NCBI GenBank assembly: GCA_905178155.1
Contig: CAJINV010000002.1
Span: 8,810,225 to 8,874,224, forward strand
Reading direction: 5' to 3'
DNA from: Amoebophrya sp. A120
Lineage: Eukaryota > Protista > Dinoflagellata
Length of the DNA: 64,000 nucleotides
Shown: positions 1,940 to 57,293 of the stretch, one piece after another
Position numbering within the stretch: position 1 is the stretch's first letter
Layout: every line of letters starts with the position of its first letter
The notes under the pieces: generated by a model
The model's input: only the letters and a program-made list of their open reading frames with translations
Databases searched by the model: none
Told to the model about the DNA's origin: nothing
Position numbers and translations under genes: made by a program

Positions 1940-2745
1940 GTTTGTGCTTTTAAGGAGGAACACTGCAGGTCCAAATCAACAGAATGAGGAGAAATAACTG
2001 CAGCTATTGTAAAGGCGAAATTTTATTCCTTGCTCTCGAGGACAATAATGCGCGTCTTTCTAAACCTAAAATCGTATTGTAAACTACTTCCGTTCCTGCG
2101 TCGATGTACAAAAGCGAATGGGCACCAACAGGATAACACGTGTTCCAGAGAGGTTTTGATGCTTGCAAGCGCGAAGCGGAAAGAAATGGCGATCGATTAT
2201 CAGCTGGTCAGCTAATTCTTCATCGATCCTGAGCTCGCCCCGTGCAGCGATAATTTTTGCGTTTCGCTAGTTCCAACACAATCCAGGGTATCTTCAGAGA
2301 CAGAGAGCTGCAGTATGCAAAAAGAATTCGAGAGCTTGATGCGCTTGCCTGTGAACATCGGTCTTCATCATCCTTGTTCCTCCAGATTGGAGGGCGTGGA
2401 AGAAGGGTTGCAGGTGGCATTTTCAATTGCCTGCAAATGAAAAAGTCGGGGGGGAAAGTACGGTTTCTAAGTACTTTCATACCTATGATGGGCAAGTATG
2501 TTTTTCGACTTGGACAGATAGCAGCATCAACACTGCTTTTTCTGCTGGTACGGTTTTTGCAATCACAAAGCTCTTTACTGGAGGAACATTGGTATGCAAA
2601 AGCAAAAGTAGTTGTCATGTGCATATAGCTTGCTTATCATCCAGTCGGGCGATTACCGTGCGGAGTTTTCTTTTTTTTCTGATACACGAGAAATCGCCAT
2701 CAATATGAGTAGAATCGATAGGGGTGGAATTCGCTTAGTTATCAG

Positions 2746-2797
2746 TTAGAGGTACACAAAATACATATTTTTCTTCATACTTAAAAATTTTATATGC
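2746..2797 (+). repeat. Left terminal inverted repeat of the giant element
   Basis: TTAGAGGTACACAAAATACATATTTTTCTTCATACTTAAAAATTTTATATGC. Confidence 0.8.
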
Positions 2798-3522
2798 GCG
2801 GAAATTATATATATTATCACGATCGGAAATAGATACAAGTGGCCGATATGTTGTACGAATTTATTATCATTGGAACGACTAGAGCAGTACTTGGTGCGGT
2901 TTTGACCTTGTAACTGATCAGGTGCCGAGCTTGATGCTATTTTTTCACGACCGACTACGATAGATCTCTACGTCGTTGCTTGAGCTTCATGATCCTTGCA
3001 CTTTCTATGAACGCGGCACATAATTAAGCGTTTTTTTTACGAGGATGCGGCCCCCTGCGATATCTACAACTAACAGCCTAGTGCTTTTTGACTCAAGATC
3101 TGTGCTGCTGCGCACAACCATCGAGAAAAGGCTTGCAAGACGGAGAAATTATATAAGTTAATGCACCAGCACGAAGCGCGATGGCATTTCGACAGCGGAT
3201 ATCTTCCCACCGCTGCGGGATGCGTTTATTTTTTTTACTTTTCAGTTGTGCTGTCAGCTGGGTGCACATCATTTTTGTTGTGAATTTACTACACTGAAGT
3301 TGACTGCTATGCTTTCGCAACACAGAAAGCGGATACAACATGCCTCGAAGCAACGCAGAGTAGTGCTTTTGTTGATGTGTCGATGTGGATGCGATCAAGC
3401 TAACTACGGAGTAGAAATTACATCACGCAAGACAATATCAAAAATAATACTACTTCTTGTGTTCTTGAAAGTGAAGTTTTTTTTGCATTACAAATCTGCA
3501 TGTTAATCCGAGCGAAAAAAAT

Positions 3523-6500
3523 CTACCCAAAAAGTTGCTTGTCGTTTACGGGGTCAATATCAAATTCGAAGCTATCGTCATTCAGCTCGAGGCTATCGCT
3601 TTTCGTTTTAGTATAAGTGAACTTTTGCGGCAAGCGTGGCAATTTCTTTTCGGTGATTCGGTCACTTTCCGCACAATTGCAGAGGGTATTATCACTTTCC
3701 CTGGCTCTTGCTTTTGCGGTAAGAATCGCGCAATTGAAAAGATCATCGCTACTTATTTCTTCACAAGTCAAATCTGAGCCAGTGTATAACTTTCCCCCTC
3801 TCCACCAACCACAAAAACACCTTCCCAACTCCGCGGCCCCATCCGGAACGCGGTGCGACATGGGGCCCAGTTGCACTGTCCTCCAGTTAGACTTTTGCAT
3901 TTCTCGGTAGGTGAGGCACGGCCCGCCGCCGGAAATAAAAGTTTTCTTGTAGATGATGATGTTTTTCTTGCACTTAGAGCATTCGCCGTTGTACTCTTTT
4001 TGGTGGTACTGCTTGTGCAGTTTGACGAGGTCGAGCTCCTTATGAAAAACGTCACTTGCGGCATCGACCTGCTTCTTCCACTTTCCACCCGCGTACTTGT
4101 TTCGATATTGTTGCAGCTCTTGTTCAAATTTCAGTTGCCCCTCGGATTTCGGCTCCTTCCGCACAGTGTCAGCAGTATGGATGCTAATTCGCGCCTACAA
4201 ACAAGCCAGGTCATATAGTTGAAGCTCAGAGCCGTACATAAAAAAACTGGATGGCTACAGTTTGTCACGCGTGCAATGACTGCTGCGGTTTCATTTGTAG
4301 GCGGAATTTATTAGATATTTCAAATCAGGCAGCGGCTGCGGATTCTGCTGGTGCGGTTCGTCTTGCACCGCCTGTAAAATATTGGAAAAAATTATAAACC
4401 GCACAAGGAGCGATCCATGCATGAGAAATCAGTCTGCTAATCGGGTCACAGCGAGAGCATTACACTGGGTGCACAAAATAGTTAGTACCTCTCTGTCTGC
4501 CACAACCTGCTTGCCAGCTGCTCCAAAAAGTCCAATCGCTCCTTCCAGAACCTTCTTCTCGTTCACTTTGATCTGGTCCGGGAGCATATTCTCTTCCTGA
4601 GTAGGCTCTTTAGCTTTCTTCGCGTTGTACTCGTCGATTTTCAGCCGGGCGTAGAACTGGATGTCGCTAGTCTTCTTGTCTATTTTTGCTTGCTCCATCT
4701 CGTCGGATAATTTTTTGTAAAAAGCCTTGATTGACATGCTCATCGTGCTGGCAACGCCGGTCGCGACGGCTTCATTTTTGTAGCACCCCTGCTTGACCAA
4801 GATCTTCTCGCCGTCCACTTCACCGAACATCATGCAAAACATAATGTCCCGCCAATGCTCGATCTGGTCTATTTGCTTCTCGACCCGCCGGAAAAAAACC
4901 ATCATCTGGTCCTTGGAGAATTCTTTTTCCTCCTTTTTCGGTCTGGTTTGCCACTCGTCAACTGCTGCAGTCGGTTTCTGTTGGCTTAGAATTTGCATCT
5001 CGGTAATGCCTTCCGGGGCATCAAAAAAAATTCCGTCCAGCATCTTCTTTTTCTCGCTGCTCGTCTTTTTATTTCCTTGGCGGGTCATGTGCTGAAACCT
5101 GACGTCCACCCGATAGTCTTGTAAGTCGCCAACAACCGAATCCGTGTTATTCTGCAGCGAGGAGTCATTTTGTTGTTGGTCATCTACCTTGGAGTTGTGG
5201 TGTGTGGAATTTTCTTCAAATACGTCCCACAAACGCTCCTCCCGTTCTTTCACACTGTTGTAGTCCAGCTTCCTCCAAAATTCGTATGGTTCGAAACACT
5301 GCCGCCCATCCATGTCCGGGCGAAAGTTGATGATTCTTCGGGGTTCGTCCTGAAACAAGAACTCGCATGTTTTCTTCACGTCCGCTTGCTTGGAACTTTT
5401 TGCGCCCGTAGGATTTGGAAGAACACCGTACCCGGCCTCGATCGCAGCCTGCAACGGAGTAAGCTGCTCCGTGTCAAAAAACCAGCAAATTCTGCAGCGA
5501 GACTTGTTCAGGATTCTGTACCGCGCGTCTCTGACGACCCGGATTTCTTGAAAATGCCCCGAGGTGCACATATCAATGCGCGAGGAGGTGATGAGCAAGC
5601 ATTTCAGCCGAGATTTCGTGGACATGGCGTGGGTTGGAAACGGAAGCGCCCAATTCCAATGCTCGTCTGGGTACTCGAACTCCGCGACGTTGCCAGCGTG
5701 TTTGTCATTTTCGTACTTCTTGGTCACGTCACCGCTGTAAGGTGACTCGAAACACCGGGCAAAACCTGAAGGCATCACATATTTACACTTTTAAAAAATT
5801 ATTGGCATGAAATTGCTGCTCGTTTTGCGCATTTTGGACGAACGTAAGCTGCTGCACAGGATTCAGCTGCAGATCAAATGCACAACCATAGGACACACGC
5901 ATAAACAATTATACTTGTACTAGATGCACACTTTTATAAGCAAGCATGGCGCGCAGCATCCCGCAATTGAATTTCAAAAATACCTCTCCACTTTCCCACA
6001 GCCTCGCCGCTGATCACCCGTGTGCTCCTCTGGAACTCTTGGTGTGCTTTCGGCAGGCGACCCGTAGCGGGTTGGTTAGGATCGGGCTCGTCAGATCCAG
6101 TTGCTTGGCCCTCTCCAAAATGCACTGCGTGGGGATCTAAAATATCCGCTTCCCGCAACACGACTACTACCAAGACCTGCAGGCTCAAATTGACGGACAG
6201 CACCTGGACAATGCGGGATCTCTTGTGGTAGAGGTAAATTTCCAGGCAGAGTGGTTTTCCTGCTTCGGTGTAGGCGTGGAGGAGAAAAAATAAGTACAGA
6301 CACTGGAGTCTGCCTCGCTGGCAGGCAGTTTGGTACTCTTCGGCTCCCTGGCAGATGTCGGTATGATGCTCGTCGATTATCGCCTCACAAACGCGGCGCT
6401 CGTGGAGACGCATGGTAGCGCACTTGTGATTTAGAAACTCTTTTACTTCAGCTTCCGACATTCCGTGTTTTGCGTGGTCCAAGTTCATGAATTGCTTCAA

Positions 6501-9500
6501 TTCTGGCAGGGCTTCCGCCAACTCGGGGTACTCGGTGTGCTGCTGGAGATTTCTTTGCAACTGCGGTTTCGGGTCGTTGTTCCACGCCGTGTTCTGTATT
6601 TTCATCATGTAGAGCATGCGCACGATGTCACTGGGTTTGCGAAGCGTGGCCATATTTTCGAACTCCGTGCCGTCCGGCCACAAATATTCGCGGCATTTAT
6701 CATAGTCGACGTCGGGCTCGTTTTCCAGCAACTGCCGGCCGTCCAAGACACTGTTGCTGTCCATGCAGCCTTTCCGTGTATAGAGCGTGGAAACAGGATC
6801 GTATGCTCGAAAACACGGCACCCAGGTCGGAAGACAAGACTCCTGCAACGCGTACTGGGTGCACTGTTTGATTGTTGTTTCAATGTGTGTCATTTGTCAT
6901 GCATAAAACGCAAGTCATTTTGCATTTCGGATTCGCAAAAAAAAATCAATATCTGCATTTTGGTACCTGCTGTAAAATCCCAGAGTTGTTGCCGCGACGC
7001 GACGTCCTGGAGAGAATGCCGCCGTACGCTTCTATACCCCGCGTACTGGGTATCATTACCGCCGGAAATTGTTCCAAAAAACTTTTCGCTTGTTCCGCCC
7101 CCTCCTTCTCATAAACTATTAACCACTTCCGGATGAGCCAACTATTCTCCATCTTCCCGAGTCCTGCGATCAGCTTACTGGCGATGGGATTTTTCCGCAG
7201 CCCCTTGACCTCCAAGATTTTCTCGAAAAGCTGGAGCTCGAACTTGTGCGAGCCCATGATCGCTCGATCGCGAAAGTGTGTGTAGCAAGCGGCCTTCGTC
7301 GTAGCAGTCTTTGTTGCCTGGATCGCGGATACTTCCTCCTCTTCCAAAAAATGGTACGGAGAACTTTCCAGGAATGCGAGGAAAGAGCGGTGCTGTTGCT
7401 TCAGGTAAAAATCCCGATCGCGACAAATTTCGGCAACTGAAGACTTCCACCCCTGGAGGTCGGATGGCAAATGCGCAAAATCCTCAAGCGTGAGGTCCAA
7501 CCCGGGCTTCATCCCGTAAAGTAACATTCTCTTTTCCATTGAGAGGCGGAGTTGCTGGGTTTTCACGGCCTTTTGCAATACCTGTTTTGTATTAGAACAT
7601 TATTTTTTTTGATGCAGTCGCGAAATAGAGATATTAACGGCCGCAGTGCCCTGATTGTGTATCGCCAGCAAAATGCAAAGCAATTTTCTTAGCATGAAAC
7701 TGCAGTAGTATAACCATAAACGTGTGCGCTTTGCATGACAAAAGCATGATCATCTGTACCCAGAAGAACCCCGCTCCGTAGGTTTCCGCAAATTTGTCCT
7801 CTTGATTCATCCGGAGAGATCGGCGAAGATCGTTTTCGAAGTGGGAATTGGACAAAAACGCCGTGTCCGCTAGCATGCTTGGAGACTGGCTGTAAAAACC
7901 CGCCCGCTGGTTCAAATTCACCCAGCCGATGGCTATGGTGGCCCCATGATAATACAGGGGTGCTCTTTTGCACAGTTCGCATATTAACGCCGCCATCCGA
8001 ATGCTTTCGTCAGCAAGTGTTGCACAGATGGAAACAATCGTGTTCGGATCGTCATCCGGGCCGAGTTTGGTCAGAGTTTCTTCCATCATGTTTCTCCCCT
8101 CCTGTTCCTTCCGCTCCCTTTTTCTCTCATCTAATTCCGTTATCCAGCTTGCAACGTCCCAAAAACCGTCTTGCTTGACCTTGTCGTCTAGCTCCTGCAC
8201 CTCGTCGTGAAAACTCCACACGGCCTTTTCCCTTCTTTTCGTGTTTGGTAGTTTGGCTTTGTTATGTCTGTTCTCGTCATCATCATCGGACTCGGAGTCG
8301 GTTTCAGCGTCGGCTTTGTCGATTGCTGATGTAATTTTGAATTCAAAATTTGAAAACAATTACGAAAGGCCTTACATTTGAAAACTTTGCATGACAAAAC
8401 CATCGGCGAACTACAGATGCAAAAAACAAAAAGTGCTTTTCTCTCTTTCCACTCCTGACCGCTTTTTGTCTTTGAACTGTAGCTTGTTGCAGGATTGGGC
8501 TAGGACGTAATCCAGTTCGAGTTTCTTCCACATGATTAACGAAGGCCTCCCATCTTTCGCAGCAGTTACAAAAATCTCCGAGTCGAGGGCCTTGCGATTT
8601 GGATTCTCGATGTAGAGAAAGCACCGGAATGCGAACCGCAACGTCGTCCACCCTGTTTTCGCGAAAAAACAAGTATAATCCATCTGGCAGAACCGCTCCT
8701 TGCTACTGAAGTTTCCCAATTGCGAGCGGATGAGTTTGCACCGAATCCTCACCGCATCTGCAAAATCCGGACTATCGTACGAGCAGTTGATTTCCGCCTC
8801 CAGATCCTCCCTGAACTCGCCGACCAGTCTGATGATGTCGTTGTCGTCGCAAGATTCGATGACCGCTGTGTAGAAATCGCCAAACTTTATGGAGTGTTTT
8901 CCTTTCGCCGTACTCCTCAGCCTGTAGAGGCGCTTCATCTTCACCGGCAGCATTTTCTCCGCAATTTTGATGGATTGCCGGTTCTCGTCGTGCGGGACGT
9001 CCCAATTGCAAATCGAGGGGCAGTATGAAAGTTAAAGACTCAGATACACATTTCAAAAATCGATCACCGTCGTATTTGTCATGCAGGTTTTCTAGTAGTG
9101 TCGCGCAAACATATATCTGAATCATTTTCACAAGATAAATCCCCGCGCTCAGCGCGCCACTGCGGGTAGGAATTCGCCGAACACTTGTCCATTGTGAAGA
9201 CCGTCGGGATGTCCACTCCAAGCCGGCCCCAATTCGTCAGGAAGGAAATGATCTCCAACAAGGCCGACAGCCAACAGCTGTATTTTTTTTGCTGGTAGGT
9301 GTAGTTGTAATCGGCGGTGTCAAGTTTTTTCAGGAACTTTTGGATATCCTGAAAAGAACCTTCCGGAAGCGCGACGAGCAGCATGCTCAGCGTGAACGCC
9401 TCATCAAGCGTGTCAAACAAAAACCCGCGAATTCGACTTTGAACAAACTCTCGTCCACCTAACCGCACGCCATCCAAGGCGCATCCCACTGCGTGTCCGT

Positions 9501-10082
9501 ACCGGGTATTCATCATCGCGTTGACCTTGATCACCTGCAGAATCCAGCAAACATAACCCAAGACCAGCATTTGTCGTGCTTTTTCCAGATGCTGCGTGAA
9601 GAGCGGGCTGTACGGCACGGCGCACATGGAGATGTGATGAGCGAATGGTAGTTGTTTTCTCCCTGCTTCTGCAATGGTGATAATTACGGGCGTGCGGTCC
9701 TGCAGCTGGTATCCTGAGGTAGAGTGATTTTTTTGAAATATTGCATGACAAATTGCGGAATGTCATTTCACGCAAGTTTATGCATGGCAAAAATCTAAGT
9801 ACCTAATCCCGGACGTTCTTGTGCGTCCCACATTTCGACAATGCGCCCGCACCACTGATTGAAATACTCCGCCATAGTTTCGATGCCCTGATTCAAATTT
9901 TAAGGTCAGCACTGTTTGTCATGCAGATTTCAGTAATCGTGAACAGTCAATATGCATAATCACGCGGACAATAAAAAGCATGCATTTGCTATGCGCAGCG
10001 CCATCAAATAATACTCGCGTCGTCCCATGTTGCAGAAGCCAACCGACAAATTGCTCAGAGGAGAAGTCGACTGTGGGTGTAT
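3523..10082 (-). CDS. Multi-exon DDE transposase-like protein (hAT/P/Kolobok-type RNase H fold), ~1,800 aa; 5' end unresolved
   Basis: Motifs occur in the expected order: CALDG (D at 9472-9474), TMDKCSAN (D at 9187-9189), WDVPH (8990-9001), KERF (~8695) and IPSTRGIEAY (E at 7030-7032). In-frame joins were checked at introns 8326-8454 (GA-AG) and 7582-7759, 6864-6966, 5766-5983, 4372-4488 (GT-AG). Joins near 9030-9130 and 4190-4310 are inferred. Confidence 0.6.
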
Positions 10083-10467
10083 CTGATAAGAAGACTATAA
10101 AGATGCGAAATATTTTCCGACACGCCGAGAAAGGTGCAACAAACTAAAATCGCCAAAATATGACATGCGTTTTTTGGTACAACATAGATGCTTCGAATTT
10201 GTTGGCTTCTTTTGCGCAACACGGTTTTTATTTCCGGACGGACAAATTCGAAACAGTCCTGCCGTCGAATTGTTTCTGCTAAAGTACGCGCAGCTCAAAA
10301 AAGACAAAACGATGCGCAAATCGACAATAAACAACTCAAACGCGAACAATCGCTGTGAGCTAGCTTTTTTGTGCAATTTTGGATGTGCCACTTCTATGCG
10401 CAAGTATCATGCGCGATCAAAGTGCAGCGACGCTGCGTGCAATCATGATGCTGGAGCGCGAAGTAAA

Positions 10468-10541
10468 AGCTCCACGCTCGAGCTCCACGCTCGAGCGTGG
10501 AGCTCGAACGTGGAGCTCGAACGTGGAGCTCGAGCGTGGAG
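10468..10541. repeat. Palindromic array of 13-bp units (CTCGARCGTGGAG)
   Basis: Two units in one orientation are followed by four in the other. 10468-10517 is a loop-less 50-bp palindrome with 24/25 arm match. Confidence 0.9.
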
Positions 10542-10594
10542 GTCCAACTTGGAGCATACTTGTGTATTCTGACGTGCGAAGTTCTGCTGTGTGT

Positions 10595-10810
10595 GATGCT
10601 CAAAAATATGCTCTTTGTTATGCTCAAAAAGTGACTACCTTTTTGACTACCCAAAAATTTCTTAGACCCCACGGCGCGCTCTCTGTTTGCGCGCTCAAAA
10701 TTATGCTTGTTTTTATGCTCAAAATTATGCTTTTTCTTATGCTCAGAATTATGCTCAATCATCGCGCTCTCGCGAGAAGAGCAAGCTCGACGCCTTAGCG
10801 TGATGCTCAA
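10595..10810. repeat. Degenerate ~12-bp-period TATGCT(C) repeats
   Basis: Example: TTATGCTTGTTTTTATGCTCAAAATTATGCTTTTTCTTATGCTCAGAATTATGCTC. Confidence 0.75.
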
Positions 10811-11338
10811 ACGCGGAGATTGATCAAGCAGAGAAGCCTAAAACTACCAAAAGCGGAAGTGCTCGAAAAACCTAAAATGGATTTCGGATTTAGGCTTTCG
10901 CGAAGCCCCCTTTTTTTAAAATGCAGCTTCTTAAAGGCCGCGCTCTTTTACCCATCTTGAATGCGCGCATAAAATTGCAGCGCAGACCTCCAGCTCGCTG
11001 CCGTCCACAGCAAATAAGCACGTGATCCGCATCAAATACAGCATCAACGCTGCGGCGCTTTTCGGCAAAAAGGCTGCTCCCCAAGAGGATTAATAAGCTC
11101 TGGGCATTGTGGCATCAAAATACCATAACACATGTAGAAGGATTGCTACAATAACAAGTATTACACGCTTTTGGCATGATTTGCGCAACAAAAACACTAC
11201 TAAAAAAAGGTAAATATGTACTCGCTTTGCCTGTGAAGGTTATCATCCCGGACATGTGGGCTATGCTAATGAAACGTCGCAGCTTCACCTTGAATGTAGA
11301 TGCTGCGATAAATAACTGTGTTGCTTTACCATACAAAG

Positions 11339-11983
11339 CTACTGCATCCATTCAAGGCAGAACTGCGAGCTACATTTCTTAAACAGACCTTGCATCTGTT
11401 CGACAGGCACAACCTGCCCGAGAAACACGTCCCGAAACACATCTGCTTGGTAGTTGCAGGCGACCAGCGGCTTGATCAGCAGCTCGGCGAAGATTGCGGC
11501 AAACTGCGCCGTCGTATGCTCCAACTTTTTCTTCACACGATTGCTCTGCTCCTCTTTGAAGTACTTCTTACACCGGCCGTTGATCAACATGAAGAACGCG
11601 TCCATCGTCAGCAAATCGGGACCGTCTGACCCTTCCGGAATCATAACCCACTGCTGTTTTTTTGCGGTCTCGGATTGCCCTTGTCGCTGCACGAGGCAGG
11701 TGTGCGTTTCGTTTTTGAAAATCTCCAGCATCAGGGTCAATGCTTTCCCACGGAGCGTGTACTGCTGCAAGAAGTCCTTCTTCGGATGGTCTTGCCACTC
11801 GTCCCGAGTACAGTTGCGAAGGTCCGTGATGGTTTTTACAAAGTGCTCCAGCGGAACACCTAGCAACAGCTCATTGACAGCGATCAAAGGCACGTCTGTC
11901 AACGCCGTTGCCTCAATGTCGATGTCGACGGGGGAAGACCCCGCAAACGACGCCAGTCGTTCCATTTTAATTCTTTTTTTCAC
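11339..11983 (-). CDS. Orphan exon/ORF inside the element; either a separate gene or the N-terminal part of the transposase
   Basis: 214-codon ORF with protein-like composition on the transposase strand. No family recognised. Confidence 0.5.
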   Translation of the reverse strand: MKKRIKMERLASFAGSSPVDIDIEATALTDVPLIAVNELLLGVPLEHFVKTITDLRNCTRDEWQDHPKKDFLQQYTLRGKALTLMLEIFKNETHTCLVQRQGQSETAKKQQWVMIPEGSDGPDLLTMDAFFMLINGRCKKYFKEEQSNRVKKKLEHTTAQFAAIFAELLIKPLVACNYQADVFRDVFLGQVVPVEQMQGLFKKCSSQFCLEWMQ

Positions 11984-12751
11984 ACTACATCTTTCAAATT
12001 ATTCTATCTCTCAGCTTTTTCTATATCGGATAACAGATGCACTCGTCATAAGAAATTTTTTGGTTCGAAAAATACTTTTTGACATAACAAACAAACACAG
12101 CAAATCACTTCAGTAGTTTCATCACCATCGCACTTTCAATTTCACAGCGTATATTTATTCCCAGATATCGAAAAAACATTTTGGACCAAAGAGAACAACG
12201 ATGCTTTGCACTACATTCATTTTTAAACTCTTTTACATCGTGTCCAGTTGCGTTTCCCCAGAAAAAAGCAATAATATGGCCCCAGCAAACTTGTCTGCTA
12301 CCGCTGCAGTCAGTGTTTGCATATAGCAGGAACAGAAAACTCCTGGCTTCATTGATGAAAAAATCAATGGTCTTCGGGACAAATGACAGACAACTAGATT
12401 GTGCAAACTGAGAAAAAGTTTACTTTATCTAGCGTGGATATGGAAAGGCAATCTATGCATTTTTTCCCAAAAAAATTCATTAATTGATACTATTTATTTC
12501 GAGCAGAGCCCCTTCATCATACAAGAAAATGAAATTCAATAATTTTTTACACAGTTGTGAACTACAACTGCTGCTTCGAAATAAAAGTTTTACAAAAAAT
12601 TGTACACGACGTGCAACAAAAAGGCGAAGGAGTTCACTTATATAAAAGTAAGACGATTAATAAGGAACTCGACTTCTAGTCATCTGCTGGCACTCACGCT
12701 TGCCCTACTTGGTGGTCTAATTCTTGTTCTAGAATTACTTGACTCCCTTGA

Positions 12752-15438
12752 CTAGATCAACTCATCCTCAGCAGCATCACTGCTTCCATCATCCATCGTG
12801 ACGAACGGCACCTCGGTACCATCGGCCAGGGTCACGGTCGGAATCTGGGGGTTCAAGATGTCCTCGATTTCTTCTTCCGGAATCTCCTGTTCGACAGCGG
12901 TGCAGTCCATGACTTCCGATCCGTCGTCCAGCAACGTGGAGATCTGTTCCAAGGCGGCGATGGGCACGCCACGGGCGGCGTTCTCGACCATGGAGACGTT
13001 CAGGTCGACGCGGACCGTCGAGGGAACTTGCGCTTCCCCAGCAGTAGTACTCATAGTGCGGCGGCGCTTCGTGTCCGGCTCAGCAATCACTTCTTCGTCC
13101 ACCTCCATCGGAGCGGCGGTAGACTCAGAACCACTGGCAACCGCAGCGGGCGCAGACGTGGCGTTGGAGATGATACCAGTGGGGGCCGCGGCCACGGGGA
13201 CAGAGGTGGTCGTCACAGGCACGTTAACGTTGGTGGGCTGCGCCAACATCGGGGTGACCGGAGGAGCCGGCTTGGCCACCTTCGGCAAGGACTTCTTCTT
13301 GAAACCGCTGCTCTTCGGGGCAGAACCGGCCTTGCTCACGACCGAGGCGGCACGCTGACCCGCTGTTTAGTTTTTGTTTGTAAATTGACAATTATCAAGC
13401 ATGATGAGTCTTTGCATCTTATCATGCACCAAAAGCAAAAAAAACTACCTTGATTCGGTTCGTCGGTCGGCAACAACGTCTGGATTCCAGACGTTGTTGC
13501 CGACCGACACTGGATCGAGGCGGGCTTGGCCTTGGACGGCGGAGCAGCTTTTGTTCGAATATTGATTATATTGCAATCGATCACAATCGTGCTCGCATCA
13601 AAACCAGTTCTGCATGACAAAAACATTATACCCTTCTGCTTCGGCTGCACATTCGCACCAAGGGATCCTTGCGAAAACAACAACCGCTGCGGCTCAATGG
13701 CGTTGTTGGAAGACGGGGTGTGAAACAGTCCTCCAAACGCAGACCCCATGGTCGAATCGACGTTCTGTTCGGCATTCGGGTCCAGCGGCGGCTGCGATTG
13801 CAGATCGGGAGACAAGGACGCCTGCGCCGCCATCTCGGTCTGCACGGTCTCCTTAATGCCGGCCATCAACTTCGACTCCATCTGCACCATACTGGTCTGC
13901 ATCAGGTTCTGCATCATCGCCAACAAGGCCTGCTGGTCGAGACCTGAGTATAATATTTTATGATAATACGCATGGTATAAAATGGCAAGCGATCACTTTT
14001 CAACACAAACTAAAAAAAATTATACCCAGTCCCGCACCCGCGGCTGCAGCAGCAGGAGCTTTCGCCACCGGAGCTTTCGCCTTCACCACCGGAGTAGCAG
14101 CAGCTTTCACCTTCGGATTAGCAGCAGGCGGCGCTGCCACCGGCGCTGCCGCAGCAGCAGCCGCAGCGTCCGGCATCGGCGTGTCGTCGACGGCAGCAGC
14201 AGCCGCACCAGCAGCTGGCTGCTCACCACCTTCTTGTCCCTCCTGCGGCAAAAATTCGGCGTCCATGATCACGTCGTTCTGCGGGGCGGCTCCCAAAGGA
14301 AGTTGACCACGGCGACCACGGCCGGCGATTCGTTCGGGGCTGGCCAAGGTGAACTCACCCAAACCATACATCGTCGGCTGGTACGTGGTCGTGTACAAAT
14401 ATGCAATGCAAATTTCAACACCGACCATCAGAGGCACTACGACAATACCGTATCAAATACATTACCTAGACACAACACACACAAACACAACATGCGTACT
14501 GTTTCTCATATTTCCACGCAAAGCCTCTCAGTCGGTGTATAGTTTTCAAAGGCATATTTCTCCCCACAACATGGCGATCTCCTCGTCCGACATGTCCGGG
14601 TCGTAGAACTTGTGCAAAGTGGTGAACCACAGCTCCAAAATGCGACGCTCAGACGCAGTTTGCAGCGGTTCGAGCACACGGACAACCTGAAGCAAGTTTT
14701 TAAGTGAAGGCTTGTATAATTTCGAGATTGCATCCACCATGTCGCATGCTGATTAAAAAAAAGCAATAATTTCTGTACCTCCAACCAGGATTCGCGGTAG
14801 CTGCACGTGATGCGGGCGGTCGCGGCGTGGATCAACAAGTTTATGCTATGAAAAATCGCACACAAAGCAACCTAAACGCAAGCACTCTCTTCGCATCACA
14901 GAATTTTTTATGCATAAAGCAGGACATTTTTTCAATCTGAAGACCGGTGCTCATCATGCAAAAATTTGCTTTGCGTAAGCAGCAGGTTTCTGCCACTTCG
15001 TGGGAAGTTCCCAAGTTGCGGGGGGCTGGGAATCCTGCAGATCATGAACACGGCCAGAAGGAGCCTCGCGGCAGACGTGCAGGTGTACTGGATCTCGCCG
15101 ATCTGTGGGTGATTTAATGTGTATTTCAAATGAGATAATAAAACGCGCAAGAATTTCATATACATATCTATGATGCTGTGCAAAAAAAAAACAAACATTT
15201 ATACCTCGACGGAGTCCTGGACGGCGACCAGGAGGCATTTCGTCAACATTGAAAGAGCAAGTTGAACCCACGCCCGGCTTACTTGGCCACTGCCAGTATT
15301 TAATAAGGTAGAAGCCACACCTCCACTGCGGGATCTCACCGTGGAGGTTTCGATCAGATTGCCCCGCGGCGGAGGGTTGCGCTCGTTGTTGTTCTGGCCA
15401 TTGCCATTGCCGGCATTGCCAGCGTTGTTATTCTGCAT
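12752..15438 (-). CDS. Multi-exon orphan cargo protein of the element, with a helical N-terminal part and an Ala/Pro-rich, acidic, probably disordered C-terminus
   Basis: A chain of GC-rich exons (MQNNNAG..., IGEIQYTC..., MVDAISKL..., YQPTMYGL..., QQALLAMMQ..., SKAGSAPK...DELI*) is separated by short AT-rich introns. Confidence 0.6.
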
Positions 15439-16271
15439 TTTGAAGTTGTGGCTTGAACTGCTGATCGCAGACAAGAAGACTTTTTTCGCTCACACTCAGC
15501 TACGGTTTTTGATTGAAAAGAGAATTTGTGATGCGCGGATGAAAAAATTGCTGTCTTTTGAAATCTCGAAGCCACAAATAAAAAATGAAGTTGCTCAACA
15601 ACAATTACACACTACAAAAGTACCCAATTGAATTACTACAATAATGCTATATGATCTCTATGGGGAGAAGTGCAAATGTCTATTTGGAAATTGCTGAGGG
15701 GATCCCGCATTATCGTCTTGTTTTGAAAGTACAACTCTCGAGATTATGTGTGATGTGTGGAAACAGAAACTCACGCTACGGGGACACACACTAAAACACT
15801 CAAAAAATATCTATCACAGACACGCTTCGCATTGCACTTTTTTCACAGAAACAAACTCTTTCTATTGTCATGAACGCAGCTCTAGTGAAAAAACGCACAG
15901 ACCTTTGCTCTGCAATACATCTCCACACTCCAACGCAAAAAAACGCAACTCAATTTATGCAGTGGAGTCTTGTGCTTTAGATTGGTTGAACGTACGGAAA
16001 TTCTCAACACGGTGGGGCTTAGTTTTGGATAAGTGAGAAAGTGTTGCTTCGGCTACACAAAATTTGCAGAACTATGGAGCTGTAGTTGGAGATTGATGAT
16101 CGTTTTCCGCATATCTTTCAAGCATTGCTTTGTGGAACACAATCATCAGAAAAGTTATGAAGTCGTATGGCTGGTTCTGCCACAGGTCAAGCACACATCG
16201 CCGCAGGTGCAAATTTTTGAAATCGCAAAGGTATTACGACGCTCACGCATACAAGTAAAAGCGCTGCAAAT

Positions 16272-17406
16272 TTACTTGATTATGTTCAGTAGAGAGCTTT
16301 CGATCGTTTGCAAAGCGTTCTGTCGCATCAAGGGCAAGATCATTTTCACTTTTCGAGCATCTTTTTCATTTTCCCATAAGCCCTCAGCTTCAGACGTTTT
16401 CTTCAAAAAAATCAAGTAGTAATTCCAGTTTGCGAATCTTTCACTATCGCCAGGGAAGCTCCGCACTGCTGGAAAGTACAGAAGCTGCACGTCCAAAACC
16501 ATCATCTGTATCAACGTAAAGATCTTGAAGTCCATCTTCAAGAAGCGGCGGCTCTCGATGATCTTCATCAAGTTGATCAGCTTTTCGGGATTGTCGCGGA
16601 CGGAATGCCACTCCTCAAACGATGCAAATGAAAAAACAAAATCAGTCACTAGCTGATGGTGCTAAATTTTTCGCAAATCGGTTTTTTAAAATTTCCAAGC
16701 ATCACACACTGCATAAATGCGATGCGCATTACAAACATGCAAACCGCAATGGTTTTGATTTTGTGTCTTCAAGCCATACAAGGAAGAAGTCGAAGCTGAG
16801 CTGCAAGTTGGTCAGCTCGGCGGATGGACCACGGTGATGATGGCCTCCACGGCGATACTCGATGACTTCGGGTGCAAGGCGAATGAGGTCTCCAACGTGG
16901 AATTTTGGACGCCATGTACGCGAGCCATACTTCCCATCCGGCGGCAAGAAGAAGCACTCCATCTTGAACAACAAAACTGCTATGATGCTCTGTGCTCTTG
17001 TGCTCTATGCACACTTTGTCAACTACAAAACGAAGGCAATATCAAAACACTTGGTCAAGTCGCAGTATGTGAGGCGCACGCTCCGAAATGCCTGAAGTCA
17101 CTTCATCAATTTTGCCGCCTGAAATTTTACATCAAAACCTCTAGCAGATCTTAGAACAGATCATCGGCGCGTCATCTTGTCTTTGAAAATTGAATGACTC
17201 TGTCATGCATAAACGCAGATCTTTTGCAGCAAAAGCACAAAGCCGTCGTGCGAGCCTGGTGGGCGGTCTTCTTCAACAAGATGGCTGGCATTACCTGGGT
17301 GAGTAGTAATTTGTGGATCAGCACTGCATTGCATGAATTCTATTTGATTTTGCTCGTCATTCGCTCTCTCAATGTGAAACACAAGCACAACAGCAAAATG
17401 GCTCAA
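16272..17406 (-). CDS. Multi-exon orphan cargo gene; ends uncertain
   Basis: Protein-like exons at 17203-17406, 16729-16974 and 16272-16649 are separated by AT-rich gaps. Confidence 0.4.
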
Positions 17407-17690
17407 GCTGTATCGAAGTCAGCGAGCTGGGCAGGGCGGATTACTCACTCATACTTTTACAGCGCGGCGCCTGTACAATGACCAGTCGGTGCGCGGTCAG
17501 TCCAGCTCGACCAGAGCTGCTTCCGTGTATCCACGCAATGGACTCCATATAAGATCGGCCCCCTGCTTCAGGCAGGAGGCTGGTACTGTAATCGCGGACC
17601 GCGACCAATACTGGCGCGCCATTTGAAAGGCGCGCAATATGCCGAGCCCGCCAATGGGGCCCGGCGGGGCATTGGCCCCAGTTGGTAAGA

Positions 17691-18045
17691 TGCTACAGCT
17701 GCAAGCAAGGAAGCGCCGAAACTTTTCGCGAACAACCGGAAGGCTTCGGCGTCCCGTTTTTCCGCGATCGGCGCCGAGGAGCTCGTAAACGGACTCCGGA
17801 GACGCCGCGGCGCAGGCACGGGACAGCTGCTTCAGGCCGTCCTCCGTCACAAGGCAGCTTGCAAACCTGTGACGTGTGCCAGCGCCCGGGAGCGGGAAGT
17901 TTTTTGCATGACGCCGGAAGCCCTTCAGGAACATCCGGATCTGCGTCTTTCCGTTCCCGCGCGTTGTACCGGGCGCACGCGCTCCTCACTCACTCCTTCT
18001 TTTCCAAGGAGGTGAAGAGGCGGGCCCGGGCTCGCAGCTGTAGCA
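17691..18045. mobile_element. Nested GC-rich TIR element (MITE/introner-like) inside the giant element
   Basis: TGCTACAGCTGCAAGC (17691-17706) matches the reverse complement of 18030-18045 at 15/16. AAGA is directly repeated at 17687-17690 and 18046-18049. Confidence 0.55.
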
Positions 18046-18571
18046 AAGAAGGCGCGGAAGCGCCGCCCGAAAAGGGCGCACCACTATGGTGCCACACAGA
18101 AGCTAGTTTCTTTATTGGAAATGGTTTCTCGCCTTCGCTCCGCCAGCTCCTCTCGCTTGTCTCTCCCTCCCCTCTTGCTTTTTATTATTCAAAAAAAAAC
18201 CTCTATACTCAGGACCTGTAAGACGCCTCCGGACTGCATTGAAAAACTTCGGGTCTGCCGCGCTTCATCAGTTGCGAGTCCGTGCTGCGCAAATCGATGC
18301 CGCCTTCGCTGGAACAACCTGGCTAATATGCGTAGCGAAATATTTCCACGCCACATCTACTTATCAACTTCTATAATTATTTTCGCTAGGAATACGTCAA
18401 TGCAAATTCGAGATGGTAACTAATGCAATCGCTTTCATTTATATCTACCCTCTACCACATATAGAGTTGCCATTCATTTTTTCCAAGAGTTGGCCATGTA
18501 TAAATTCCACGGCAGCCATTTTATCATGCAACGGTGCATATGTATGGTTTTTTTTCCGCGCTTGCGCTAGT

Positions 18572-18623
18572 GCATATGAAATTTTTAAGTATGTTCTTGA
18601 GTATGTATTTCGTGTAGCCTTAA
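18572..18623 (-). repeat. Right terminal inverted repeat of the giant element
   Basis: The reverse complement reads TTAAGGCTACACGAAATACATACTCAAGAACATACTTAAAAATTTCATATGC. Confidence 0.8.
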
Positions 18624-19179
18624 ATCAGCAAATATGAAATTGTGGACAGCTCCTAGAAAGCGATCTCACATCATTTGCTTTTCCTCTACTGACTTTGCAC
18701 CATGATGGTTCTTGTTGTATTTCCGACTGTTAACAGGATTGTATAGCAACGATTTGGGGGGAATAATATTACGATAACGATAAAGCGATATCAATTCATG
18801 TCTAAAAAAAGGCTCTATGTGCTGCAATTCCTAGTACGGAAATGATCAGTAGGGTTCAAAACTCTCGGAGGTTCGACGAAGGCAAGGATTTTCAAGCGCT
18901 CTAGAACAGCGCATCAAGCTTTATCCGGCAAAGCCGTACTTTTGATGCGCCGGAGGTGTTGTTCGGCCTTCGGAGGTTCTACGAGACAGATAAAACTTTG
19001 GTCTAACGATTGTACAAATTGCCCGCTTTTTTTCCAAAACCGAAAAAAGATCGTCTTTTTTCTCTTTTCCGCGACATATTTGATTCTACACTAGGTTAGA
19101 AACTACGTAGACGTACACATGTACGAATAACTCCAATAAATATCTTCCATTCTACAAAAAATAGCAAGTACGTTCATTT

Positions 19180-19779
19180 TTACAGCAACAATCCCATTCC
19201 CAAGCCGAGGGCCAATCCGCCCACCATGGCGCCCGGCACCGGGTCATAGTAGCCGTACGGGTAGCCATAGCCGTAGCCGTACGGGCGGCCGTAGTACCCG
19301 CCATAGGGATAGGGACGGGCGTACACCACCTGCGGGGGCGGCTGCTGCACCACCACCGTGGTTGGTTGCTGCGGTTGCTGCACCACAACAGGCCTGGAAG
19401 CCTGTTGCTGCACCTGGGGCTGCGGGGCCGTGCTGACTTGACGCCTGCGTCCCTGCGACACCGATTCGACCTTGAGCTTGTCGCTCTGGCCGGGCGCAAG
19501 CTTCTCCCCGGGCTTGAGCTTCAGCTGATCGCCTTTATTCAACCGGACGACCTTTTTGGAACCGTCCTTGCGGATAATGGTGACGTCGATCGGCGCGGGC
19601 TTGCTTTCGGATTGTTGTTGAGAATTCCGGGAAGGGGTCGGAACCGGAGGGTCAACCGGAGCCTTGGAAGACCGCGGAGCCGCGGGCTCAATGGTCTGTG
19701 GGTAGGAGGAAATTTCCGGCATTTTGTGTGTGGCGGTCTCTTCTTGCGGAGCCTTTTGCTTGCTCTGCTTGTTTCCCAT
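19180..19779 (-). CDS. Small Pro/Gly/Tyr-rich protein with a possible N-myristoylation motif (MGNKQS) and a C-terminal Gly-zipper hydrophobic tail; paralog A
   Basis: Intact 199-aa ORF that shares a ~40-aa domain and the tail with 27147-28180. Confidence 0.8.
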   Translation of the reverse strand: MGNKQSKQKAPQEETATHKMPEISSYPQTIEPAAPRSSKAPVDPPVPTPSRNSQQQSESKPAPIDVTIIRKDGSKKVVRLNKGDQLKLKPGEKLAPGQSDKLKVESVSQGRRRQVSTAPQPQVQQQASRPVVVQQPQQPTTVVVQQPPPQVVYARPYPYGGYYGRPYGYGYGYPYGYYDPVPGAMVGGLALGLGMGLLL

Positions 19780-21761
19780 AAAGATAAAGGTGATTTATGA
19801 AAGAAGATCCGCAAACTGTAGCGTAGTGGGTCGTTACAGAACTTGTCAAGTACGTAAAAGAAGTAAAAAAAGTCGGGAAAATAGTTGATAAAAGAGGTCG
19901 ATCGATTAGCAGGTTGCTTGTTTCCAAAGTTGTCAAAATAAATGATGCGGGAACTGTTGCAAAATTAAGTGGATGTGGAGTTTTCTTTGGAGTTTTTGGA
20001 ACATAAGTTTCACAACGGCAAAAGAACTACAGGCGCCGCCTTAAGCTAAATGATCTTTGATGTTTACCGACACTTCTGGATCGATCACATTTATCCCAAA
20101 GATCTGAAATTTTTTTTGTCTCTTCAGTCAAGTCATTTATCAAGCGACAATTGCAATTTATTCAGAACTTTTTGTTTATATGCACCGAATGGTCGCTGAA
20201 GCTTGATCGAAGTGAAAATGTCACAGGAGGAGTATGTTTCTTCGCGACATGTGCACGATGAAGGGTCGATCTTTGCCAGAGGTCGCTTGTTACTTAGCAC
20301 CGACATTCGGGAACGTGTAGTGCCAATGCACATTTGACACGCATGCTGCAGAAAATCCACCTCTTTCCAGAAAAGAACAATTGCAATGGACTTCTCTTTC
20401 ACTACACTTCTTTGACCCTCACGCTAAGACACGGTGAGAGGCGACTCACCAGGTAGCGCAATAAATGATTTTTTCTTGAAATTCTCTAGTATGTTTCCAA
20501 ATAATACTACACAAATTTGGTTCATGATGATTATGACGATATTTGTTCTTTCGGTTTTGCATGTTGAATCAGTTTTTCTCTTTTTGTCATGCTGAGAAGT
20601 CCGTCAGCAAGATCCAAAGTTCATCTCGAAGTAGGGATTGTGGGATGCGCTCGGACATGATTTCGCCGTTGGTCGCCGATGCTTCGCATAGGATTCGAAT
20701 GAAAAAACTCTGCAAAGAAATGCAAAACGCAGCCAGCCATAATTATCTCTTGTCTTCGTCACAAAGATGACAGCGCTATCATCATCATCATCTACTTAAC
20801 AGCACTGGGCGGTTTTGTTTGACCTCAAACGAAAACGGAGTGTGGGTTTTCCGTGAATTTTAAAGTAGGCATTCGTCCTTCCTCTCCTGGTTGAGAGGCC
20901 ACATCAAGGAAGTCGTCATTGTCGTGGTTCTTTTTCGGAAAGGCGAACAAGAGGAAGTAGACCCTTTTTTTGCTACAAGTTTGCGTAAGGCCTGCTTTGT
21001 CGAAACAATAAGAATCGCTTAACAAGTGCGCTTCGACCTCAAAAATTAAAATCCCATTACGGAACAACAAAAGAATAAAAAAACAAAAGTTTCGGATTCT
21101 ACATTCTATAATTAAATCTTTTTACTGGATTAGACAAAAAAGTTTCAGCTATACATAGTACTACTACTAACAAGAAAAGTACAGAAAGAAAAAATGTACA
21201 TTTTGAAAAAGAAAATGCGAGGAAAGTGCCAATACGTGTAAAAAGAGAGCACGGTCGTTTATGTTCATCTATTGTTTGTAGCTTTCGTCCTTTCCTTGCT
21301 TTTTGTAGAAGTTGACCCTGATGAACTACTTACACTTACACGTGACGGACTCGGAGGTGCGTCTTGATTTACTGATATAAAAATAGTGTAGAAGTCTTGT
21401 ATTAATTTACAAATATTGATTTTTTAAACGTGGAACAAGAAAGGCGATGGACTAGATAGGAACGTAAGCGGCTGTGCATGCAGCTGCGGGAGTTCAGCGC
21501 CAGGAAATTGGCACAAATCAAACAGAAACGAAGCGACTGCAACTAGCTCGCGGCCAAATTACGCTGCGGCCTTTATCTGTTGTTCTTGTTCTGCGACTGA
21601 GAAGGGTAACGCTAAGGCGGCACTCCAGCAAGCGATACACCAGATTCATATGTTTCACGCTGTCGCAGTCGCTACGTCTCTGGTTTTCTATCTTTCACAT
21701 TGCAGCACTCACATTTGTTCTTACTGGGTGAAATTCTTGTTGCTGTGTTCTCCAGTTGATT

Positions 21762-27146: not shown

Positions 27147-28180
27147 TTAAAGCATCAGCCCCATGCCGAGGCCCAACGCCATGCCGCCGCCCAATCCGAG
27201 ACCAAGGCCACCGTACGGGTACATGCCGTAGCCGTAGGGGTACCCGTAGCACCCGTAGCCGTACCCGCCGTAGGGGTAGCCATAATACGGGTAGGGGTCG
27301 TACGCGTACATCGGCGGGCGGCGACGCACCACGACCCGCTGTGGCTGTCCCCCGGCTTCCTGCTTCACGTTTTCCCCTTTCCCCGTCTGCACCTTCAACC
27401 GGTCGCTCTGGTTCGGCGCAAGCTTCTCGCCCGGCTTCAATTTTAGCCGTTCGCCCTTGTTCAGCCGCACCTGCTTCTTCGTCCCGTTCGCGCGAATGAT
27501 CTCTACCAGGATCGGCGGGTGCTGTTCCTCGACTGGAACAGACTCCACAGACGCCGATCTCTGCTTTGGGCTCGGCGCGGGTACCTTATCTTCTGCCTCA
27601 GAGGTTTCGGGAGCGGCGATCGGGACCCCGGTGACAACGTGGGTTCCGGAAACAGGGGTCTGTAGTTGCATGTTAGTTAACGATGATGTTTTACTTTTTT
27701 GATTGCATGATTCTTCGCACGAAGGACTTGATACCGCACTTCCACGATCACGAATTTATCAAAATTGCTAAATAGCACAAGAGTATCTATGTGCCTACTC
27801 ACTTTTTCCGCAAAAAAAAATAAGTAAAAAATCCATCATAAAACCGAAAAACAATTTAGCACAAGCTCCTTCGGCACTGTACGAGCTGCCAAGGCGAGCT
27901 GCCAAACCGAAAAACAAAAACGCTGTACCTCAGAATGCAGCGATGCCCTACGTTCCGACGGGAGCGAGTGAATGCTGTCGCGCTTCTCTTGCTTCGGTAC
28001 TGCTTCCGCCGCCACATCGCCGGCAGCGGGTAAGGGCTCCGCTTCCGCTGCGGGAACATTTTCCGCACGTTTTTCTTCCATCTTGTCCCCTCGATTTTGC
28101 TGATTTCCCATTTCGATTTCCGTCTGTTTCTCCTCTTCAATAACGTGGTCTTGTTGATGCGCTCCTTCCTTTTCTGCCAT
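27147..28180 (-). CDS. Gly/Tyr-rich protein, paralog B (two exons)
   Basis: Exon 1 ends SLHSE|GTACAG and exon 2 starts CTACAG|TPVS in frame. It carries VEIIRANGTKKQVRLNKGERLKLKPGEKLAPNQSDRLKV and a GLGMGLML tail. An alternative start MGNQQ lies at 28111. Confidence 0.75.
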
Positions 28181-31216: not shown

Positions 31217-33117
31217 TCAAAATGTTTGCCCCGGCTTGTTGACCTGAAAGCGCACGTCGCCTTTTTCAAAGAAGTCCACGATTTGCTTAGCCGCAGCGAT
31301 GCCGGCGTTGTTGTTTGCCTCCGACGTCTGCGCTCCCATCTTCTTTTTGGTGACAAAACACCTCTTCTTGCTAGCGTTGAGTTGTTCCATGTCAAAGGTT
31401 GGGGCGACGTCAGAGATGTAGGAAAGATCAGCACCTGATAGAGGAAACAATCAGACACAATATTGATTCGAATCTGCTGCAAAAGAAAACCTATTTCATA
31501 CTTTTCTGCATCACCAGCTGCCACTCTGCTAAGTGTAAGCGCGTACAGCGATGAAGAAAAGTGCAAAGTAAACACAATGAATTGCTAGGTTTCAAGTACG
31601 TTCCGCGAACGCCTCCAGCAGTCCTGCTTCGTGGACAACCTCGGCTCGAGCGGTATTGACCAAAACCCCGTTCTTTGGCATTTTTAGCAGGAAATCCTTT
31701 CCAATCGATTCCTTCGTTTCCGGAGTGCAGGGAATGTGGAGGGAAACAAAGTTCGCGTCGAAAAGTTCTGCTACCTGATATGATAATTATGACCCGGCTG
31801 TACTTTTTAGCAGGTCCCTATTTGCTGTCGTGCGCGGCGCGCGACCATTTTTTCTGCGTCTGATCCTGATACAAAGAACAAGAAGATTTATTGCGCAAGG
31901 AAAAACACAGACAATCTTGCGTTTCTTGTGACCAAAAGTCCGATACCGACCCCACTGGCACTGCGCCGGCACTTTCAATGTCTTCCTTCTTCAAAAAAGG
32001 GTCGTATGCCAGCACTTTCATTTCGATATCCTGTGTAAAAACGTCCCCACACCATAGTTGTCATGCAACTCTGCATGCTTAAAATGTTTCTCATGCGGAG
32101 CCCCACGAGAAGCATTTTCTAATGCGGTTTTGAAATTTGTCATGCTCCAATCAGCATGAGCTACTAGACCTGTAATGCTGCTGAACTAGCTCAAACAGCA
32201 CTACACTACGCGTCCAAATTTGTCATGCGCAGCAATCAAAGCTGTGGGATTTGTTTAGCAGATTTCCCATGTTGACTCTGGTGTGGGGACGTTTTTACAC
32301 AGGATATTCGAAGCCCTTCGCCAATCGGAACATGTTCCTCGCTACCTGCCCGAACCCGTGCAGGGCCAGCGTCTTGCCCTGAATAAATTGGAGAGTTTTC
32401 TCTTTATCAAAAGCTGGCGCAGCACGGTACTAATCAGCAGCCAAGGCAACAGCAGCGAGGACTCCACATAAAAAATAGCATGCACCCTGAAGATGATCTT
32501 AATGCCTTTAAACAAAAAACACCCTTCGCCCCTCCTTCTTACCTTCAACTCGTAGCCAGAGCTTCCGTCGTAGTGGTTTCTGATTTGTGTGATCATCATG
32601 CCAAAGGCAAGCTCAGCCACCGCATTCGAGTTCTGCCCCGGTGTATTCATAACGACCATACCTTGAAACATTTTTCGTACCTCTGTCTGGTGCAGCTAAA
32701 AATTTATCAGCAGCGCGCTCGTGATGGACCAGCTCTGTTGCAATAATTGAAAGAAACCGTGCCGAAGTCGCTGGTCCTTTTGCCACAGCACATGGCATTA
32801 GCAAGCACTACTTCTTTTCGCCTCTATTTACCTCTTTCGGTCGCCGCATTTAGGTCAATCGTGTCGACCCCGGCTCCCGCCCGGACGATGAGCTTCAGCG
32901 AATCCTTGCAGGCGTCCATAATTTCGGCCGTCATTTTGTCGGACCTCACGATCGCAGCTTCGGACTTTGCCAATGCGGTTTTGAGCTCTCCCACATCCTT
33001 GTAGTTTTCCAACTTTTCCAGCGTGTAACCCGCATGCTTCAGCACATCGTCGATCTGGGCCACCGCCGGGCCGGCGAAAGGCTTTTCCGTAGCCAGCAGA
33101 ACGGAGTGGGCCGGCAT
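31217..33117 (-). CDS. PHGDH: D-3-phosphoglycerate dehydrogenase, short type IIIK (Lys in place of the catalytic His), six exons
   Basis: Motifs IVRSD, IVRAGAGVDTID, NTPGQNSNAVAEL, GKTLALHGFGQVA, AYDPF, SLHIP, LVNTAR and TKKKMGAQT. Introns 32662-32831, 32379-32542, 31775-31946 and 31435-31599 are GT-AG; one non-canonical intron lies at ~32022-32306. Confidence 0.9.
32027..32306. mobile_element. TIR introner (non-canonical intron) in PHGDH
   Basis: Perfect 28-bp TIR TATCCTGTGTAAAAACGTCCCCACACCA with TTCGA duplicated (32022-32026, 32307-32311). Removal restores KGFEMKV. Confidence 0.93.
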
Positions 33118-56900: not shown

Positions 56901-57293
56901 GTTGCCCACCAGAACATCTGCAATCTCTTCCACAACCTCCGCCGCGGCTACCACGCCCTCCTGTACCGCTTCCGCACCCTCCGCCACGGTTTCCGCGACG
57001 TCGTCAACGAGAGGTTCAACATCATCGCTGTTCTCAGTAGCAGGTTCCGCTTTCTGCCGCTTTTGCACGAAGGCCCGCGGGGATGGGAAATTTTGCTGCG
57101 AACTAGTGCTGGCATCCTCTTCGTCCGTGCTAACACGGACCGTCGTTGGTTGTTCCGGGGACTGACCGTTTGCGGCGGTTGCGAGGCACAGAGAGTGGCT
57201 TCCCGCCCCGATTGCCACGAAAGCAGCAGCGACAAGCTGGCCTCGTCGGTTGAGTAGAGTGAGACCGCCTTTTTGACTCATTTGCGTCATCAT
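53973..57293 (-). CDS. ABC1/UbiB-family atypical kinase, copy 1, with a signal-peptide-like N-terminus
   Basis: GPVLHKMIQ, ASIAV, KIVRAGV, EFD, FLHGDPHLGNIL and FIDFG. Single GT-AG intron at 55656-55916. Confidence 0.85.

Follow-up and report, generated by a model that had tools for sequence, protein, structure and literature searches.

A Large Terminal-Inverted-Repeat Transposon of Amoebophrya with a Predicted Multi-Exon DDE-Type Transposase That Fits No Known Superfamily

Structure of the Element

The window analyzed here is a stretch of 64,000 nucleotides (64 kb) from Amoebophrya sp. A120 (contig CAJINV010000002.1). The gene singled out in it by the initial annotation is enclosed by a 15,878-bp insertion (positions 2746–18623), bounded by inverted ends and by a 5-bp duplication (Table 1). 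The terminal inverted repeats (TIRs) are imperfect, with 77% complementarity over arms of 52 bp, and the 55-nt ends of the element pair to form a duplex of −44.0 kcal/mol (z −12.9). The TIRs, together with a target site duplication (TSD) and its empty form, are the features of a class II element. Since sequencing runs contain a joint from which the element and one copy of the duplication are missing, the insertion is taken as real, and it is almost certainly a mobile one. No second copy was found within the 64-kb window.

In addition to the flagged gene, the element contains predicted cargo genes, for whose segments no credible family matches were found in Pfam, NCBIfam, or PHROGs. Upstream of the first modelled exon, on the side of the 208-aa ORF, 13-bp tandem and palindromic repeats as well as ATGCTCAAAA-type repeats are present at 10460–10830, possibly as a nested insertion. 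Two 23-bp arms separated by 1 nt form a perfect inverted repeat (13462–13508) within a predicted cargo exon.

Table 1. Coordinates of the element, its predicted genes, and neighboring features in the window.
Feature	Position	Strand	Remarks
TSD, left copy, ATCAG	2741–2745		Identical letters at 18624–18628; empty joint has five ambiguous letters
Left TIR, 52 bp, start TTAGA	2746–2797		Inverted-repeat pair with right arm
Predicted last exon with stop, Cys/His-rich	3523–4194	−	Nine Cys in aa 1561–1783; no family match
Predicted extension exon, 425 aa	4489–5765	−	Coding score stops at 4488 donor; one ankyrin-like TPLxxA..G motif
Predicted first extension exon	5984–6863	−	First ~30 codons score poorly; Met at 6764
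Predicted exon, putative catalytic E820 (PSTRGIE)	6967–7581	−	E at 7032 (codon 7032–7030)
Predicted exon, insertion region between DxxH and E	7760–8325	−	Coding score/frame
Predicted DxxH exon (DVPH, 9001–8990)	8437–9030	−	D at 9001, H at 8992; both flanking joins non-canonical
Non-canonical intron (AT-AC reading) with hairpin, or insert plus frameshift	9031–9116	−	Hairpin z −4.7
Predicted exon, putative catalytic D131 (ALDG) and D226 (TMDKCSAN)	9117–9713	−	D at 9474 and 9189; motifs, codon score
Two small predicted 5′ exons (9887–9803 and 10082–10015)	9803–10082	−	68-nt exon has negative coding score
208-aa ORF	11342–11965	−	Separate cargo gene or transposase N-terminal exon; no family match
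Predicted multi-exon cargo gene, Ala/Pro-rich, low complexity	12752–14452	−	Coding segments 14296–14060, 13977–13453, 13351–12755
Further predicted spliced cargo genes	14560–16990	−	Segments near 16616–16275, 15489–15337, 14743–14567
Right TIR	18572–18623		Reverse strand begins TTAAG
TSD, right copy	18624–18628		Equals left copy; joint in runs
Host gene, Pro/Gln/Tyr/Gly-rich	19180–19779	−	3′ UTR holds the insertion and ends near 2440–2470
Short element, 280 bp, TAT-start	32027–32306		Terminal repeat perfect over 20 nt or more, 90% over a 40-nt arm; 5-bp direct repeat
Short elements, TAT-start, 5-bp repeats	58558–58652 and 60769–61090		TIR scan

The Predicted Transposase Gene

All motifs named in the initial annotation were located on the minus strand in the order given there, and its estimate of a protein of ~1,800 residues with ~950 beyond the catalytic Glu agrees with a nine-exon model (10082–3523) of 1,783 aa, which has zero internal stops and 963 aa past E820. 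Residues D131, D226, the DxxH motif (260–263), and E820 are followed or interspersed by ERF (aa 361), CSKC (aa 1632), and CFC (aa 1686). When the six frames of each exon were compared using a codon score for which ten host ORFs served as the training set, the model frame was the best one in nine of nine exons and the score was positive in eight, with the 68-nt first exon being the negative one. The 5′ end is open, as this first exon has no Met, leaving the start codon uncertain. The GC content is 0.32–0.45 in the introns and 0.48–0.54 in the exons.

Six of the eight joins consist of an in-frame GTA(C/T) donor and a YAG acceptor, a number reached in 13 of 5000 shuffles with windows that were chosen post hoc. 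The other two, located within the catalytic region on both sides of the DxxH exon, are not GT-AG. In the initial annotation, in-frame GT-AG joins lead to four more exons past the catalytic Glu; in the model, three exons joined in this way follow the E exon, and a fourth (about 4372–4300) would need a non-GT donor. No AG acceptor is present between 9031 and DVPH; since there is none between the last upstream stop and this motif, the exon must be reached either through a one-base frameshift or by non-canonical removal of 86 or 92 nt with AT-AC ends. The gap in question folds into a terminal hairpin with z −4.7, whereas z is about 0 for two other introns of the element and for one host intron. 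Precise excision of the hairpin insert would shift the frame, in which case this copy of the transposase may be broken. For the join on the other side (8436–8326), where the coding score stops, GC-AG is the best reading.

A 9-mer is present in six of the eight introns, including the one that leads from the E exon to the tail, as well as in the short element at 32 kb (at 32059); eight copies lie within the large element and two in the remaining 48 kb. The heptamer GCATGAC, in either orientation, has 24 sites in the window and recurs often in introns and in short introners, within the large element as well as beyond it (for example, at 6896, 7733, 8389, 9078, 9743, 9918, 13612, 32060, 47097, and 60900). 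The RNA check of the splice model gave no reads or contigs spanning any join among the matches listed, and the nine-exon model is therefore a prediction.

Evidence for a DDE-Type Enzyme

The order D, D, DxxH, E is found in the predicted protein, although it depends on the non-canonical join at the DxxH exon. In shuffled sequences this ordered pattern appeared in 47 of 3000 cases in a loose form and in 2 of 3000 in a strict one, the patterns (hhDG, T-x-D-x4-N, h-DxxH, and P-x-T-x3-E) having been written down after the motifs had been seen. hAT enzymes are characterized by CxxH and RW motifs, and the initial annotation proposed a hybrid motif set. The predicted protein has DxxH rather than CxxH, and a reading of ERF as RW was rejected as unsupported, since ERF lies about 100 aa past DxxH. 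In the P element, DxxH is positioned about 30–36 aa past the second D, a spacing that is also seen between D226 and D260 of the model. The span from D226 to E820, about 600 aa, exceeds those known from hAT or P enzymes.

Searches for relatives were blank within their respective scopes. No homolog was found in three word-index searches of proteins, for which the queries were the D-D exon (among longer proteins), the E exon (among proteins of near length), and the DxxH exon (among longer proteins), in two locus scans each of metagenome and viral contigs, or by tblastn against plasmids. With six exons used as queries, PDB sequences gave no match better than E 0.12; for the ORFs of the element, all matches in Pfam, NCBIfam, and PHROGs were unrelated and below threshold; and the Atlas gave no usable match for the D-D exon. 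These blank searches are weak evidence of isolation. Single-sequence AlphaFold models were all-helical, with pLDDT of 34.4 and 38.3. With no homolog in these searches and neither model usable, identification as a DDE enzyme rests on the motifs and on their context. The reading as a transposase is much strengthened by the TIRs, the 5-bp duplication, and the empty-form joint, but the RNase H fold expected for it could be shown with neither of the two low-confidence models.

The gene might, instead, encode something other than a DDE transposase, with motifs that arose by chance in an element that is non-autonomous or is a cargo carrier mobilized by other means. The lack of profile, structure, or language-model support and the post hoc choice of the patterns speak for this explanation, whereas the rarity of the strict motif order among shuffles and the position of the gene as the largest one in an element with TIRs and a TSD speak against it, as does the D131–D226 region, whose residue pattern can be read by eye as the succession strand–strand–strand–helix–strand. 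We consider this explanation rather improbable, and it is likely that the flagged exons do encode a DDE transposase.

The Tail Following E820

The exon carrying E820 is followed by a stop (6946–6948), and the transposase could end about 27 aa past this residue, the tail then being a separate multi-exon cargo gene starting from the Met in the next exon. Such an arrangement would agree with the near-zero score of the first ~30 codons of the exon that begins at 6863, with the strong segment beginning at that Met, with the presence of several further co-oriented genes in the element, and with the lack of RNA across the join. However, the gap between the two exons (6967|6863) is only 103 nt long, much shorter than that of ~790 bp between cargo genes (12752 to 11965), and has an AG|GTA donor, an in-frame CAG acceptor, a GC content of 0.33, and the 9-mer found in five upstream introns. 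A separate gene is therefore thought unlikely, and the tail probably belongs to the same protein as the catalytic region.

A binding or scaffolding role, and not a second enzymatic activity, is the most likely reading of the tail, whose predicted sequence includes a cluster of Cys and His residues and a single ankyrin-like motif and matched no catalytic family. For the 425-aa exon, the best score in the Atlas was 0.81, to an ankyrin cluster, which is below the 0.9 level, is reached by a third of shuffled proteins, and serves as a lead only; the ten best family-bearing matches (10 of 10) share the family or clan of the best one. A Walker A motif is absent from the tail, in which no nuclease or helicase family match was found either. 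A helicase was considered and rejected, as the tail has one DEHH and no Walker A.

The initial annotation contrasted the long tail with hAT enzymes, which usually end soon after E. Precedents for a long tail are found in Dada-U6_DR (PMC3706591) and in KolobokE and KolobokH (PMC9587614), making the tail less novel. In Dada-U6_DR, the catalytic Glu is residue 811 of 1402, with about 590 aa beyond it and a CCHC finger at the C terminus (PMC3706591), whereas in KolobokE and KolobokH the transposase is followed by domains of a nuclease or helicase (PMC9587614). The predicted protein resembles the latter two in having a DxxH transposase with an accessory region past the catalytic domain (PMC9587614), but differs from them in a tail with neither Walker A nor a nuclease or helicase match.

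Short Elements and Other Features of the Window

Three short elements with near-perfect terminal repeats starting with TAT and with 5-bp repeats are present in the window, compared with zero in each of five shuffles. The strict scan gave six matches with 5-bp repeats, and three of them, in a tandem array near 63.5 kb, were dropped. A relaxed scan (8 of 10) was discarded, since its 14 matches compare with 7–13 in shuffles. The element at 32 kb is inserted in a gene resembling D-2-hydroxyacid dehydrogenases (Pfam E 0.052, over a piece of 29 aa), and the one at 60769–61090 splits a kinase-like gene, whose paralog at 53973–55658 shows the same stretch uninterrupted. Excision of the element together with one repeat restores the frame in two of the three cases, namely in these two genes. 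The ends of the large element have no sequence in common with those of the TAT-type short elements, so that a partnership between the two would be hypothetical; ends shared by the large element and short introners were looked for and rejected.

A 14-nt match to the end of the short element at 32 kb is located at 53777–53790. GC-rich tandem arrays, laid out as long inverted repeats, occupy 49100–49720 and 63300–63960. Two pairs of host paralogs are also present, one of small Tyr/Pro/Gly-rich proteins (19180–19794 and 27147–27755) and the other of ABC1/APH-like kinases (53973–57308 and 59320–62265). A CCZ1/longin-like host gene has a canonical GT-AG intron at 556–811, which is supported by joints in runs X3 and X6.

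Comparison with Known Superfamilies and Introners

The TSD of the element is 5 bp long, as in the hAT5 subgroup, whereas MuDR elements have TSDs of 8–10 bp. In one row of the supplementary file 8 of Gozashti et al., the MuDR TSD is given as 8–9 bp (PMC12130899). DDE superfamilies have been assigned to a C/DxxH group (PMC9587614, PMC10045372), and the element shares with hAT, P, MuDR, Kolobok, as well as with Dada, the putative order D..D..DxxH..E, the TIR/TSD architecture, and introns in the transposase. It differs from all five, as described in these sources, in combining a 5-bp TSD and TTA termini with ~600 aa from D to E and no Pfam transposase match. hAT elements have an 8-bp TSD and the PF05699 dimerization domain (PMC6004678), neither of which is found here, and the TSD of the P element is ~8 bp (PMC3706591). 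Kolobok is characterized by a TTAA TSD and 5′-RR..YY-3′ termini (PMC9587614). A Kolobok reading of the ends was rejected: the termini begin with TTA, and the TTAA at the right end is assigned to the element itself rather than to its TSD because the empty joint holds ATCAG. Dada elements, known also from the alveolate Perkinsus, have no TIRs, a TSD of 6–7 bp, and small-RNA genes as targets (PMC3706591). The element resembles them in the multi-exon, very long DxxH protein with hundreds of residues past E and a C-terminal Cys/His finger, but has TIRs, a 5-bp TSD, and a target in a 3′ UTR (PMC3706591); no Rfam match was found in positions 1–21000.

The introners of Amoebophrya have terminal inverted repeats and direct repeats of 3–5 nt, and start with TAT in one strain and with TTA plus two purines in the other (PMC7789003); the direct repeat is 5 bp according to the legend of Figure S19 (Farhat et al. 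2021, PMC7789003; Gozashti et al. 2025, PMC12130899). The three short elements of the window, with their TAT starts and 5-bp repeats, agree with this description. The large element is built in the same way, having TIRs with a flanking direct repeat, the TTA–purine–purine start, ends that are not GT-AG, and a location in a transcribed host gene in common with introners. In contrast to published introners, which are short and contain no transposase, it extends over 15,878 bp and includes cargo genes in addition to a putative transposase. Among the rows listed, AT donors and AC acceptors occur commonly in published Amoebophrya introners (PMC12130899).

Of the two strains studied by Farhat et al., one yielded two putative transposases and the other none, and these authors ruled out a general transposase-mediated spread of introners (PMC7789003). 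In rows 1–61 of the 118 in supplementary file 8 of Gozashti et al. (PMC12130899), 58 rows belong to one strain; 56 of these carry no superfamily, the other two being one Ginger and one Mutator. One four-member family among the rows listed has an alignment of ~18.8 kb and terminus tags of hAT5/hAT6; long elements may therefore already sit unrecognized in that table (PMC12130899). Our literature search found no paper describing such a large introner-like element.

The Joint in Sequencing Runs

Four (X3, X6, X8, and X9) of the ten listed runs were examined, with X9 having no reads. X8 is raw RNA from another study, and the RNA status of X3 and X6 is only a guess. The joint 2740->18624, with five ambiguous letters, which omits the element and one duplication copy, is present in X8 (583 + 533 reads with 147 starts), X3 (depth 412), and X6 (depth 44.7, and a near-identical joint at 103). 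A contig of X3 fuses 18624–19780 to 2716–2740, and the X8 reads that mark the end of the host 3′ UTR terminate at 2463 and 2474.

In X3 and X6, the filled left junction occurs alongside the empty joint. No contigs enter the right end of the element in these two runs among the matches listed, and their depth at 17969–18615 is zero, while X8 has hardly any reads within the element. The depth over the transposase exons is about zero among the matches listed, apart from a few contigs at the left end (2716–3686 in X3, depth 72.6; 2716–3403 and 3379–3663 in X6) and a trace at 5618–5794. These left-end contigs cover just ~0.7–0.95 kb of the element at a depth of 35–73, run into the flank, and can be read as a short transcript in either direction.

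The joint can be explained in two ways, and its sequence would not differ between them. The element may be removed from the host RNA by splicing, to which we give an even chance, or the joined form may be an empty allele, coming from other strains or from a mixed culture, of an ordinary polymorphic insertion that is not spliced at all, a possibility we judge to be evenly poised. An empty allele would account directly for a joint that is identical to the pre-insertion sequence, and for a length of 15.9 kb, which is far above the window of 40–1000 bp within which introners are defined (PMC7789003). Splicing would also require the host transcript to cross several co-oriented genes, and the run that is known to be RNA comes from a different study and has almost no element reads, the RNA status of the others being guessed. 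On the other hand, a filled allele present in X3 and X6, as their left junctions suggest, should produce reads entering at the right end, exactly where the depth is zero. The strong pairing of the element ends and the two short elements of the same anatomy, which interrupt coding frames that are restored by their precise removal, also argue against an ordinary insertion.

Discussion

The large element is a TIR transposon with an orphan, multi-exon transposase, probably of the DDE type, that fits no known superfamily. In the reading that we prefer, with a probability of roughly 0.6, the flagged exons belong to a single spliced gene whose product is a DDE transposase of the DxxH group acting by cut-and-paste, the predicted mobilizer of the element itself. 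This transposase would bind the ends starting with TTA and then excise the element, and reinsertion would proceed with a 5-base stagger, as suggested by the duplication. Following insertion, the element is about as likely as not to leave the RNA of the host 3′ UTR together with one copy of the duplication.

The element is also a candidate for an autonomous element of the introner type, an assignment that is testable. More speculatively, it could be the autonomous master element for a new DDE superfamily, with a 5-bp TSD, TTA ends, and an enzyme of ~1,800 aa, from which the non-canonical introns invading Amoebophrya-type parasites derive their mobility, being itself a hairpin-closed, multi-gene mRNA intron of 15.9 kb, although this extended proposal is doubtful. 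The gene is possibly the missing enzyme of introner-like elements. A transposase that is split by introns and missed by every profile search tried would explain why introners have seemed to lack one, and a concrete enzyme and end sequence are now available for testing. If the element is indeed spliced out, the non-canonical splicing machinery of these parasites would cope with whole autonomous elements, making insertion into genes nearly cost-free.
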